From an uncultured Clostridia bacterium (GTDB lineage Bacteria; Bacillota; Clostridia; Christensenellales; UBA1242), in assembly GCA_934746515.1 (NCBI GenBank), contig CAKVFH010000001.1, positions 102,279 to 166,278 of the forward strand: a stretch of DNA of 64,000 nucleotides, read 5' to 3'. The notes under the pieces are model-generated. The model searched no databases and was not told where the DNA came from. It saw nothing but the letters and a program-made list of their open reading frames with translations. How positions within the stretch are numbered: the stretch's first letter is position 1; each line of letters starts with the position of its first letter. Both the position numbers and the translations under genes were made by a program. This document shows positions 18,743-58,909 of the stretch, piece by piece.

Positions 18743-18747
18743 ACTTT

Positions 18748-19067
18748 TGTTAGTTGGGCGAACGCGCAAAGCAATTTGTGAGGAAAGTCCGAGCACCATA
18801 GAGCAATCACGCTTGATAACATCAAGCCAGGGTGACTTGAGGAAAAGTGCAACAGAAAGATACCGCCAGTTTTGGTAAGGGTGAAAAGGTGAGGTAAGAG
18901 CTCACCCGAAACATTGGTGACAATGATTCGCTGTAAACTCCGTGAGGTGCAAGGTGTGGAACATATAGGCTGCTCGTCTGTTCCCATGACCGCTTGAGTA
19001 TGGTAGCAATATCATATCGAGATTGATGTTCGTCTTCAATGACAGAACTCGGCTTACAGACTAACTA
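18748..19067 (+). ncRNA. rnpB: RNase P RNA
   Basis: Universal P4 elements GAGGAAAGTCCGAGC (5') and ACAGAACTCGGCTTAC (3') with matching covariation. The terminal P1 pairs GTTAGT with ACTAAC. Has its own promoter and terminator. Confidence 0.9.
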
Positions 19068-19068
19068 A

Positions 19069-19092
19069 AAGGGTGACGCAAGTCGCCTTTTT
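19069..19092 (+). terminator. Terminator of rnpB
   Basis: GGGTGAC-GCAA-GTCGCCT hairpin followed by TTTT. Confidence 0.7.
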
Positions 19093-53639: not shown

Positions 53640-53855
53640 ATGAATAAAATAAATTTAACATTTCCTGAAATATTGCAGGAAATTATGATAGAGAAATCAC
53701 TAAATCAAGTTCAGCTAGCTCAACTATTAAACATCAAACAAAGCCAAATTAGTGAATGGCTAAAAGGCAAGAGCAAACCTGGTTATGACAACATCAAGCT
53801 GATTTGCGAAACTTTGAATATTTCTGCTGATAGAATTTTGGGGCTTGATAGATAG
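53640..53855 (+). CDS. XRE-family helix-turn-helix transcriptional regulator
   Basis: 71 aa with the HTH_3 pattern LNQVQLAQLLNIKQSQISEWLKGKSKP. Confidence 0.8.
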   Translation: MNKINLTFPEILQEIMIEKSLNQVQLAQLLNIKQSQISEWLKGKSKPGYDNIKLICETLNISADRILGLDR

Positions 53856-56307: not shown

Positions 56308-56382
56308 GCGGGAATGGCTCAGTGGTAGAGCGCTGCCTTGCCAAGGCAGATGCCGCGAGTTCGAATCTCGTTTCCCGCTCCA
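56308..56382 (+). tRNA. tRNA-Gly (anticodon GCC)
   Basis: Acceptor GCGGGAA/TTCCCGC, anticodon stem CTGCC/GGCAG with loop TTGCCAA, T loop TTCGAAT, encoded CCA. Confidence 0.9.
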
Positions 56383-56461
56383 ATAGGGAAACGGCAGGTT
56401 GAAAGACTTGCCGTTTACTTTATAAACAATATTTATAATCATTATAAATTTCATTTATAAT

Positions 56462-56536
56462 GGCGACATAGCCAAGCGGTAAGGCACGAGTCTGCAAAAC
56501 TCCCATTCCTCAGTTCGATTCTGAGTGTCGCCTCCA
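56462..56536 (+). tRNA. tRNA-Cys (anticodon GCA)
   Basis: Acceptor GGCGACA/TGTCGCC, anticodon loop CTGCAAA, T arm CTCAG-TTCGATT-CTGAG, U73 discriminator typical of tRNA-Cys, encoded CCA. Confidence 0.88.
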
Positions 56537-56539
56537 ATA

Positions 56540-56573
56540 AAAACTCATCAACAATAGTTGGTGAGTTTTTTTT
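56540..56573 (+). terminator. Terminator after tRNA-Cys
   Basis: ACTCATCAAC-AATA-GTTGGTGAGT followed by TTTTTTTT. Confidence 0.8.
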
Positions 56574-56794
56574 GGCGACCAAAGAATCAACTTGCCGAGC
56601 TAACTAGCACTTTTAGAAGAAAATGTGTAACAGAAACATTTTGTGGCTCACTTACATTTGTTGGCGAGCTAGTTCGCATGGTGCAAGCCCACGAGCCAGG
56701 TTTAGAATGATTACAAAAAAATCTATTAAAGGTTAAGGTCTATTTTAACCATTATAATTTGTGCGAGTATACTGAGTGTCGCCTCCAATAAAAA

Positions 56795-56825
56795 GACCAT
56801 AGGGCAAACCCTATGGTCTTTTTTT
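56795..56825 (+). terminator. Terminator inside the repeat unit (different stem sequence from 56540-56573)
   Basis: GACCATAGGG-CAAA-CCCTATGGTC followed by TTTTTTT. Confidence 0.8.
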
Positions 56826-57236
56826 GGCGACCAAAGAATCAACTTGCCGAGCCAACATACACATTGAGTAAGAAAAGTGTGTAAACAAAACCTTTTGTGC
56901 CACACTTACACTTGTTGGCGAGCTAGTTCGCATGGCGCAAGCCCACGAGCTAGGTTTAGAATGATTACAAGTAAACATCTATTAAAGGTTAAACTTTATT
57001 TTAGCCGTTATAGCTTGTGCGAGCATACTGAGTATCGCTAACATATAATTTTCAACGAAGAATTTGAAGGCTAGTGAGTTTTTTTTGGCGACCAAAGAAT
57101 CAACTTGCCGAGAAAATATATGCATTAACTGAAAGAAATGTAAACAAAATATTTTATAACACATTGTTACTGCCAATACGACCAATTTAATTGCGTAAAC
57201 AATATAAATATGATATAATAATTTTAGGTGAAGATT

Positions 57237-57662
57237 ATGGAAAAAAAGAAATTAAGCATTGTAAACTTTTTATGGATTATTCCTTTAGTTTTAGGCGTTA
57301 TAGTTGGAATTGTCGGAATTAACAAAATTGCTGCGGCAAACAGCATGGTTGTTCCACCAATGACTGATGAAGGCTGGTTTGATGCAAGCAGCGCACAATC
57401 TGATTTAAGGTTCGCGGGAATTTTTATGTGTATTTTTGGATTTGCTTTTATTGGTTTTTTCGGCACATTTATTACTGCCATGGCTCCAAAAATTATTAGA
57501 GAAGCTAAAAATAAATCTATGCTAATCAACAATTTTGAAACTCAAGTTCAAGAAAAAACAACATCTGAACCAAAGCAAAAGAAATGTGCTTACTGCGGTT
57601 CTCTTATTAAACCAGGAGAGACAAAATGTCCTTCTTGCGGTGGAAAAGATTTTGTTGATTAG
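57237..57662 (+). CDS. Membrane protein with a C-terminal zinc-ribbon (CxxC...CxxC)
   Basis: 141 aa from the ATG with AGGTGA upstream. Two hydrophobic segments and CAYCGSLIKPGETKCPSCGG at the C-terminus. Confidence 0.6.
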   Translation: MEKKKLSIVNFLWIIPLVLGVIVGIVGINKIAAANSMVVPPMTDEGWFDASSAQSDLRFAGIFMCIFGFAFIGFFGTFITAMAPKIIREAKNKSMLINNFETQVQEKTTSEPKQKKCAYCGSLIKPGETKCPSCGGKDFVD

Positions 57663-57786: not shown

Positions 57787-57875
57787 GCTGATGTGGCGAA
57801 ATAGGCAGACGCAAGGGACTTAAAATCCCTCGAGGAGAAATCTTCGTGCCGGTTCAAGTCCGGCCATCAGCACCA
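57787..57875 (+). tRNA. tRNA-Leu (anticodon TAA), long variable arm
   Basis: Acceptor GCTGATG/CATCAGC, anticodon stem AGGGA/TCCCT with loop CTTAAAA, long variable arm, T arm GCCGG-TTCAAGT-CCGGC, encoded CCA. Confidence 0.88.
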
Positions 57876-58066: not shown

Positions 58067-58909
58067 TTACATTTCAAATTCTAATCCGTCGTAAGCTGGT
58101 TTATATCCATATTTGCTCAAGATTTGCTCTAAATCATCATGTGGCGGATTTCCATCATGAGTTATATGAGTGGCATAAATTAAACAATTGTCGTTAAGTA
58201 ATTTTTTCTGTTTTAAAGTCTTAATATACTCGTCAAATGCTTTTATATTAAGATGCGAAAATGTATGTTCTTGCAATCCAAATGATTCATCCAAAAAGAT
58301 GCAATCAATTTTTTCTCCATTTAATTCTTGAACTGCAAAATCGGTTATTGGGGGAGTGTCTGTGGCATACAATAATGATTTTCCATTATTTTTAATTAAG
58401 TATAGTTGTGCACCAATTTTTTCATCGTGTGAGCAATGAATTGCCTTGATTGAATATTCATTTAATTGCAAAGATTCTCCATGATTGATTGTTTTTACAT
58501 CCAATTTTATTTTGCTTAAGTAATCTTTATTATATAAATCCATTCTATCAAACTGCGATGCTTTCTTTTGTATGTCACTTAAACATAAATCTGAACATAC
58601 CAATGTCAAATTATCCTTTCTTTGGGTTCCATATTTATTATCTAGCGATGTAAAATGATTTATATCAAAATGGTCTAAATGGGTATGTGTTTGCAAAAGA
58701 TACTTAACTTTTCCCATATCTTTATTGTACATATTCATCGATGACGAGCAATCTGGCGTTAAATCAATTATCATTTCGTCATTGATTAACAGGGAAGCTC
58801 TTTTTCTTAAATTTTTACCGCCGAGAATTCTTGCTTTATTGCAATATTCGCACTCACAAAAAACAAGTGGATACCCGAACCCTCCAGAACCTAAAACTAA
58901 AACCTTCAT
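58067..58909 (-). CDS. MBL-fold metallo-hydrolase
   Basis: 280 aa with HTHLDH metal-binding motif, an N-terminal VLGSGG and a Cys cluster CECEYC. Confidence 0.7.
   Translation of the reverse strand: MKVLVLGSGGFGYPLVFCECEYCNKARILGGKNLRKRASLLINDEMIIDLTPDCSSSMNMYNKDMGKVKYLLQTHTHLDHFDINHFTSLDNKYGTQRKDNLTLVCSDLCLSDIQKKASQFDRMDLYNKDYLSKIKLDVKTINHGESLQLNEYSIKAIHCSHDEKIGAQLYLIKNNGKSLLYATDTPPITDFAVQELNGEKIDCIFLDESFGLQEHTFSHLNIKAFDEYIKTLKQKKLLNDNCLIYATHITHDGNPPHDDLEQILSKYGYKPAYDGLEFEM

Follow-up and report, generated by a model that had tools for sequence, protein, structure and literature searches.

In the 64,000-nt stretch of DNA analysed here from an uncultured Clostridia bacterium of the human gut (the window, below), the transfer RNA (tRNA) gene tRNA-Cys(GCA) is followed by a tandem array of units of roughly 250 nt, each of which repeats the 3' end of the tRNA. 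Direct repeats of a tRNA end, arranged in tandem, are well known as a mark of integration, and the question raised by this locus is what kind of DNA could have accumulated behind a tRNA gene in pieces so short. The initial annotation left two answers side by side, namely a stack of attachment-site (att) scars at which no integrase is left, or a family of tRNA-flanked structured RNAs. The reading that we favour, with a little more doubt than conviction and by comparing the sequences of related loci, is that the units are insertion modules, flanked by att sites and devoid of genes, that sit at the 3' end of tRNA-Cys. They would descend from a tRNA-targeting element, as its relics or as non-autonomous derivatives, and would resemble cis-mobilizable elements (CIMEs) reduced almost to bare attP-like arms. 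Homologous recombination now amplifies, shuffles and removes them.

Anatomy of the array

The gene for tRNA-Cys(GCA), placed at 56462-56536 on the + strand by ARAGORN (Rfam tRNA match, 59.5 bits), is the final gene of a Val-Gly-Cys tRNA cluster downstream of recG. Its last 16-19 nt are the 'core' that is repeated through the array, and all parts of the array described below are on the + strand. Core copy 0 (ATTCTGAGTGTCGCCTCCAATAAAAA, 56518-56543; direct-repeat family D5) consists of the tRNA 3' end and an A-rich trailer, and includes an exact 23-mer (CTGAGTGTCGCCTCCAATAAAAA, the last 16 nt of the tRNA and 7 nt of trailer) that begins at 56521 and, as had been noticed before, recurs without change at 56772, with 0 such matches expected by chance. 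The degenerate third copy of the tRNA end, CTGAGTATCGCTAACA, was likewise located at 57028. Measured from one CCA to the next, unit 1 is 251 nt long (56537-56787) and comprises a terminator of type A, a 26-mer, a variable segment, a central block and a copy of the tRNA end. The type-A terminator (CTCATCAAC-AATA-GTTGGTGAG followed by T8; inverted repeat I2) occupies 56544-56573 and is followed directly by the first copy of the 26-mer GGCGACCAAAGAATCAACTTGCCGAG (56574-56599), which is exact in three copies, at 56574, 56826 and 57087 (0 expected by chance). The 58-nt central block (56658-56715) differs at 2 positions from its counterpart in unit 2 (56912-56969), and its own core, CGAGCTAGTTCGCATGGTGCAAGCCCACGAGC, is kept across lineages, with copies at the related loci L024 and L029. 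Core copy 1, an exact match to the tRNA 3' end and its trailer, lies at 56772-56794.

Unit 2 is 256 nt long (56788-57043). It carries a terminator of type B (GACCATAGGG-CAAA-CCCTATGGTC followed by T7; 56795-56825; inverted repeat I4), the second 26-mer (56826-56851) and the second central block, and closes with the degenerate core at 57028-57043. Comparison among strains identifies the next segment (57044-57086) as a decayed type-A terminator, of which the 3' half ..GTGAGTTTTTTTT only is left. A truncated third unit follows (57087-57163; families D1 and D4), made up of a perfect 26-mer (57087-57112) and about 50 nt of diverged unit sequence; it is present in all related strains and merges, at about 57163, into the promoter region of a gene for a 141-aa protein. 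The spacing between units is 251-261 nt, and the array was missed by Tandem Repeats Finder with default scoring. The first two terminators are highly stable hairpins with a T run (-21.7 kcal/mol, z -9.8, and -26.2 kcal/mol, z -7.4), such that the earlier statement that a terminator stands behind each copy of the tRNA end holds for the first two copies but not for the third (-4.3 kcal/mol, z +0.5). Nor can the terminators be regarded as compensated versions of one stem, as was suggested at first: the two hairpins are unrelated.

The right border of the array is marked by the gene for the 141-aa protein (57237-57662, + strand), which lies outside it. The predicted protein has a membrane segment and a C-terminal CxxC..CxxC, and its gene likely has its own promoter, to judge by the sequence TTGCGT-17-TATAAT at 57191-57219. 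Distant homologues of the protein are found on short contigs in a different context, and are uninformative for the array.

The same kind of module lies directly 3' of tRNA-Cys at syntenic loci in four gut Clostridia lineages. These loci were found by look-ups of window proteins and of RecG homologues, the latter being annotated 'Clostridia bacterium' and encoded on contigs from human gut metagenomes. Five features are common to the lineages: a strong terminator, whose sequence is arbitrary; the 5' motif GGYGACC-RAAGAA-NNAAC; a segment of variable sequence, about 65 nt long in the window; a central block of the form CGAGCWAGTTCGC..GGCG..AGCC.ACGAGCT; and CGAGTAT directly 5' of the tRNA-end copy. 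CGAG also occurs four times on the + strand of each unit, at about +60, +130, +157 and +228 (starts 56596, 56665, 56692 and 56764 in unit 1). These positions are kept across lineages, and the - strand of the window-lineage units has no CGAG (P ~0.002 per unit). The variable DNA, 270 nt longer in L024 than in the window, sits between the first CGAG and the remaining three. The 26-mer is invariant while its flanks fall to about 40% identity.

The 5' motif is itself a degenerate, inverted tRNA-Cys 3' end, as evidenced by GGCGAC-CAA-AGAATC-AACT in the unit against GGCGAC-ACTC-AGAATCGAACT in the reverse complement of the tRNA. The likeness extends in register past the hexamer (P ~0.02 for the window, for L024 and for L040), and in L040 the sequence after the terminator, TGGAGGTGAC, is the complement of GTCGCCTCCA. 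Unit junctions are imperfect palindromes of 85-90 bp centred on the terminator loop. The GGCGAC at the start of the unit, initially taken for the tRNA 5' acceptor sequence, does have that sequence; because the motif around it is an inverted tRNA 3' end, it is better described as an arm of the terminator-centred palindrome. The inverted tRNA-end copy and the four oriented CGAG motifs are new, having gone unnoticed previously. The inverted start of the unit, the four direct CGAG motifs and the perfect state of the 26-mer even in the truncated copy are unexplained.

Copy number, layout and empty sites in relatives

Copy number at this tRNA-Cys locus varies among the close relatives of the window lineage, of which five were recovered (L003 and L011-L014; L014 ends at a contig edge). 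One full unit and the truncated unit are present in L003, L011 and L013, as against two full units and the truncated unit in L012. The gap between RecG and the gene beyond the array is correspondingly 889-893 nt in L011 and L013 and 1146-1152 nt in the window and L012, and the difference between the window and the single-unit strains amounts to 251 nt bounded by a 26-nt direct repeat. In most close relatives the type-B hairpin (GACCATAGGG/CCCTATGGTC) stands immediately 3' of the tRNA; in the window, an intact type-A hairpin takes that place, and type B comes only after unit 1 and an intact core. In all close relatives the distal core is degenerate in the same way, with a decayed type-A hairpin behind it. 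Individual units are mosaics in which terminators, 5' halves and 3' halves of different types are combined, and in L012 a unit has been duplicated along with its degenerate core. The mosaics and the L012 duplication mean that homologous recombination between units is active.

Among more distant lineages, L024, whose RecG is 79% identical, has a single unit of 447 nt, and L029 (RecG 71% identical) has two units of about 250 nt each. In L040 one short, degenerate unit is accompanied by part of another, and in L032 and L035 there are no units at all, with a terminator or tRNA-Leu immediately behind tRNA-Cys. The L024 locus runs from the tRNA with its core through a terminator (ACACCC/GGGTGT), the 447-nt unit, an intact core and a different terminator (CCACCA/TGGTGG) to unique flank. 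The order in L029 is the same, with two units and the same two types of terminator. The flank of L032 aligns with that of L029 past the last core (71 of 109 columns), and the aligned part takes in the next gene's promoter. As read from the sequence, this is the layout of an insertion into the tRNA 3' end that brought its own terminator and displaced the native one distally. The repeated tRNA end follows the lineage's own tRNA, with CTGAG in the window and CCGAG, a T-stem variant, in L029.

The roughly 270 extra nt of the long L024 unit (L024 7515-7775) include about 150 nt that are relatively G+C-rich and contain several hairpins, such as CATCAAT..ATTGATG and TGCCGAA..TTCGGCA; a very A/T-rich part follows. 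No Rfam match, convincing open reading frame (ORF) or copy elsewhere in the examined loci was found for this DNA.

Origin of the units

It is the insertion layout of L024 and L029 that leads to the units being read as att-flanked mini-modules. In such a scheme, a site-specific recombinase would have crossed over within the last 19-24 nt of the tRNA gene, in the core ATTCYGAGTGTCGCCTCCA and A-rich trailer. The incoming DNA would have supplied a fresh copy of this segment together with a strong terminator of its own, leaving the tRNA intact and properly terminated, and the original tRNA end and native terminator would have been displaced to the far side. Modules would then have been stacked by repeated events or by unequal homologous recombination between units, and the distal copies of the tRNA end and their terminators would have decayed. 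The 26-mer, the four CGAG motifs and the central block would be putative arms for the binding of a recombinase or accessory proteins, and the variable stretch between the conserved parts would be residual cargo; the extra DNA between the first CGAG and the other three is where cargo would sit. We infer that the first insertion was made by a recombinase, that the conserved motifs may be binding sites, and that the modules may still be able to move.

Several observations point to such an origin. A 19-26-nt repeat of the tRNA-Cys end bounds every unit in the window, L024 and L029, as for an element that targets a tRNA, and the target site is unoccupied in the relatives L032 and L035. The distal copies of the core have degenerated (CTGAGTRTCGCTAACA) and the terminator behind them has decayed, as expected of displaced fragments. 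The units contain no coherent ORF, since the best frame has a stop in L011 and is broken by frame-shifting indels between the L029 units. The empty sites, the layout in L024 and L029, the distal decay and the lack of a recombinase gene within 10 kb strengthen the proposal of stacked att-site scars with no integrase, which is the best fit to the locus once it is amended: the scars form a family conserved in four lineages, their ends and central block have been kept, and their number changes mainly by homologous recombination.

The principle involved is an established one, in which an insertion regenerates its target and displaces a fragment, and att-flanked relics without an integrase come to lie in tandem (PMC4383910, PMC5704250, PMC3146451). 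As with the islands and prophages at tRNA 3' ends and their CIME relics, the units are placed at the 3' end, with the gene regenerated and the displaced fragment left as a direct repeat, and as in CIME accretion there is tandem stacking, distal decay, empty sites and an absence of recombination genes from the relic (PMC4383910, PMC5704250). However, the CIMEs described are kilobases long, whereas the units here are about 0.25-0.45 kb and gene-less, are without a known related autonomous element, form a conserved family in several lineages, and carry an inverted tRNA-end fragment at their other end. The ssrA-specific tandem islands of Dehalococcoides, with 20-bp repeats of the end of the transfer-messenger RNA gene, resemble the array in their many direct repeats downstream of a 3' end, in having some intervals without an integration module, in a conserved motif beside each repeat and in a number that varies with the strain; yet those islands carry genes, and in most copies a serine-recombinase module, where the present array has 250-nt intervals and no recombinase (PMC3146451).

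What is unusual here is the extreme reduction, to 0.25 kb without any gene, the fact that several lineages share a conserved family of units, and the tRNA end that is repeated in inverted form. If the units are indeed att-flanked mini-modules, they would be among the smallest such insertion modules described, and a tRNA gene would be able to gather, shuffle and lose tiny 'empty' integrative units with little more in them than a replacement tRNA end, a terminator and putative protein-binding arms. This would bear on the annotation of genomic-island borders in metagenome-assembled genomes, and on the persistence of attachment sites without a recombinase.

A number of points weigh against this interpretation. 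No recombinase or integrase gene (Pfam) lies within 10 kb at any locus examined, and no parent element was found: five unit and junction patterns had 0 matches in viral contigs, as did the 23-mer of the tRNA end and the native 3' end of tRNA-Cys, and a blastn search of 50,697 phage genomes with the window unit and the L024 unit returned no match. Homologous recombination alone can explain the changes in copy number, as in the L012 duplication and the mosaics. Decay is expected of a relic, but the three window copies of the 26-mer, the truncated unit's included, are all perfect, and lineages that share only 70-80% identity in RecG still have conserved blocks in common. The inverted piece of the tRNA end with which each unit opens is atypical for attP sites, and the window-lineage array closes with a truncated unit, not with a core and the native terminator.

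The five patterns without a match in viral contigs were the central block, the cross-lineage block consensus, the arm-core junction, the degenerate 5' motif and the 21-mer CCAAAGAATCAACTTGCCGAG. The 21-mer also had 0 matches in metagenome contigs, and its one match in genome contigs, at the end of an Anaerolinea contig, is a chance match. The negatives from these scans are weak evidence, as the scans need exact patterns and are insensitive. In the metagenome contigs, moreover, the consensus pattern had 0 matches though it is present in L029, which is derived from the Joint Genome Institute, so that negatives from this incomplete collection carry little weight.

Of the other explanations, the one that survives best, which we nonetheless think unlikely, is that the units are products of non-functional local turnover. 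Here, a quasi-palindrome at the terminator would have been extended by template switching to yield the inverted tRNA-end copy, and slippage or unequal crossing-over would then have duplicated in tandem a segment that takes in the tRNA 3' end, with neither a recombinase nor a function involved. The palindromic junctions speak for such a process, as does the homologous recombination evident in the mosaics and in L012. Neighbouring non-coding DNA of the tRNA cluster, for instance the Gly-Cys spacer, is also highly conserved between lineages, and conservation alone is therefore weak evidence that the units have a function. Local turnover does not, however, explain where the 165-nt body of the unit came from, or why in L024 and L029 a body flanked by cores has a different terminator at each end. 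It also leaves unexplained the persistence of four oriented CGAG motifs and a 33-nt block between lineages at 70-80% RecG identity, and of an invariant 26-mer beside flanks of about 40% identity.

It is rather improbable that each unit is a structured non-coding RNA of the + strand. In this case the 5' end (GGCGAC..AGAAU) would pair with a tRNA-like 3' end (AUUCU..GUCGCC-UCCA), and the RNA would have its own terminator and possibly be processed by tRNA enzymes or act as a decoy or sponge, in analogy to the spacer RNAs of tRNA operons. A precedent is the 3' external spacer of E. coli glyW-cysT-leuZ, which Lalaouna et al. in 2015 reportedly found to be a functional RNA sponge. The E. coli locus is alike in being a Gly-Cys cluster with Leu nearby, where non-coding sequence runs from the tRNA to an intrinsic terminator. 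That RNA is a transcribed trailer upstream of the terminator, whereas the present units lie behind a strong terminator.

Predicted folds agree with an RNA up to a point. Both minimum-free-energy folding and RNAalifold predict a long-range helix that closes the unit, a second helix (ACUUGC/GCGAGU) and, in the centre, the hairpin GUUCG..GGC-GNNA-GCC..CGAGC, and substitutions compatible with wobble pairing on the + strand only (GGC to GGU in L029, GCGAGU to GCAAGU in L024, and the changes in the L003 26-mer) are a weak hint in the same direction. The conservation of blocks across lineages and the strong terminators that close the proximal units can also be counted in its favour. On the other hand, the fold z-scores (-1.4 for the + strand of the window, -0.5 for L029) are no better than those of shuffles, and in a covariation test of 9 distinct units from two of the four lineages the RNAalifold covariation term was unfavourable (+1.47). 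The internal stems, proposed at first to be compensated, are A/T-rich, and the 9 units have 4 double-sided pairs in the true register and 4 in a control slid by +1.

Further evidence against an RNA comes from searches and from the strains. No Rfam 15 family matches the units, even at E up to 10; gathering scores were reached only by four tRNAs and RNase P, the best matches in the units being at chance level, with at most 29 bits against thresholds of 42-60. The units share no conserved + strand promoter, and every one of them sits behind a strong terminator. In the commonest haplotype the unit's 3' end is GTCGCTAACA, which has no CCA, and the terminator has decayed, which argues against an NCCA end and a terminator being required. 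As to the tRNA-like closure between GGCGAC and GTCGCC with an NCCA end that was originally envisaged, the pairing is present; the NCCA end is not general, as 7 of the 8 window-lineage units have CTAACA, and the 5' hexamer varies (TGCGAC, GGCGGA). Thus, with neither Rfam, promoter scan, fold z-score nor covariation counts in its support, and with the CCA lost from most units, the family of tRNA-flanked structured RNAs is the half of the initial annotation that finds no support. Were it correct after all, it would bring to light a family of tRNA-anchored RNAs in a gut lineage that is still uncultured.

An extension of the mini-module reading, which we regard as a long shot, would make the modules a new class of gene-less elements of about 0.2-0.45 kb in which both ends are inverted copies of the tRNA-Cys 3' end. 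As bare but still active attachment modules, they might fold back into a duplex that mimics the target, be mobilised by a recombinase encoded elsewhere, and be maintained by selection in several gut Clostridia lineages.

The minus strand is a very doubtful candidate for the functional one. It could specify a short RNA running from near the reverse complement of the 26-mer (CUCGGCAAGUUGAUUCUUUGGUCGCC) to a bidirectional terminator, or the tRNA-end inverted repeats could flank an invertible promoter. The conserved + strand motif TGTGTAAAC of the full units reads TTTACA on the minus strand, and the truncated copy has a promoter-like TTTACA-18-TATATT (57144-57115, 10/12 matches) that would place a start at the edge of the 26-mer and is kept in all related strains; A and T runs also flank the terminators on both sides. 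However, the full units and L029 have a poor -10 element or none, the fold z-score of the minus strand is -0.5, and all units have the same orientation in 6 strains and 4 lineages, so that there is no sign of inversion.

That the units are small genes, each for a protein of about 35 aa (for instance 56623-56736, MCNRNILWLTYICWRASSHGASPRARFRMITKKSIKG), can hardly be credited. The frame CGA GCW AGT TCG is open in the window units and L029, and both differences in the 58-nt block fall at third codon positions; but the frame meets a stop just 5' of the conserved block in L011, lacks a start codon in L024 and is shifted by a 2-nt indel between one L029 unit and the other. A convincing ribosome-binding site is absent as well, and the C-termini vary freely.

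Other identities were considered and rejected. The unit is not a degenerate tRNA-Cys copy with an insertion, in that the 5' 55 nt of the tRNA show no similarity to the unit body (P 0.2-0.9). It is not an integron attC site, the stem bases being GTCGCC/GGCGAC and not R''/R' boxes (RYYYAAC / GTTRRRY), with no integrase gene nearby, and by eye the conserved motifs match dif/Xer-like, cre, Spo0A-box and attC sequences poorly. Miniature inverted-repeat transposable elements (MITEs), enterobacterial repetitive intergenic consensus (ERIC) sequences, and repetitive extragenic palindromes (REP) with their bacterial interspersed mosaic elements (BIMEs) share with the units a length of 200-450 nt, the lack of genes, imperfect inverted repeats at the ends and an association with terminators. 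Inverted ends of 6 + 10 nt are present here, but they are copies of the target tRNA, and the flanking direct repeat of 19-26 nt is tRNA sequence and far exceeds the target duplications made by transposases. Unlike those elements, the units were found at one place only: neither in the window nor in the 395 kb of related loci is there a copy anywhere but behind tRNA-Cys.

Other features of the neighbourhood

The spacer between tRNA-Gly and tRNA-Cys contains a perfect 7-1-7 palindrome, TTATAATCATTATAA (56433-56447), which we take to be of the PerR-box type (TTATAATNATTATAA). It is the sole match in the window, where 0.12 would be expected with at most 1 mismatch, and it is conserved in L024 and L029 and, with one mismatch, in L032. 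As a sequence motif, it may mark regulated transcription of tRNA-Cys. The trailer of tRNA-Gly (56368-56392) mirrors its own tRNA, in that GGGAAACG complements the 3' strand CGTTTCCC to give the arrangement CGTTTCCC-GCTCCAATA-GGGAAACG. The same is seen in L024 and L032 and not in L029 or L040, and trailers that mirror a tRNA end may be a recurrent trait of this cluster.

The second tRNA gene beyond the array, tRNA-Leu(TAA), is on the same strand as tRNA-Cys in the window (57787-57875) and on the opposite strand in L024 (9630-9718) and L029 (9642-9730), and it lies directly after tRNA-Cys in L035. Comparison of these gene orders indicates that the interval between tRNA-Cys and tRNA-Leu has been rearranged repeatedly. 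Adjoining tRNA-Leu(TAA) is a 280-aa gene of the metallo-beta-lactamase fold with a Pfam Anti-Pycsar_Apyc1 match (58067-58909, - strand). It is present in the window and L013 and absent from L011 and L012, and so is a variable accessory gene beside the second tRNA. Upstream of the tRNA cluster, a 71-aa HTH_3 (XRE-type) gene at 53640-53855, between fakA and recG, is likewise found in the window, L012 and L013 and not in L011 or L024. At a greater distance, positions 18746-19072 of the window match the bacterial RNase P RNA of class A with 250.9 bits.

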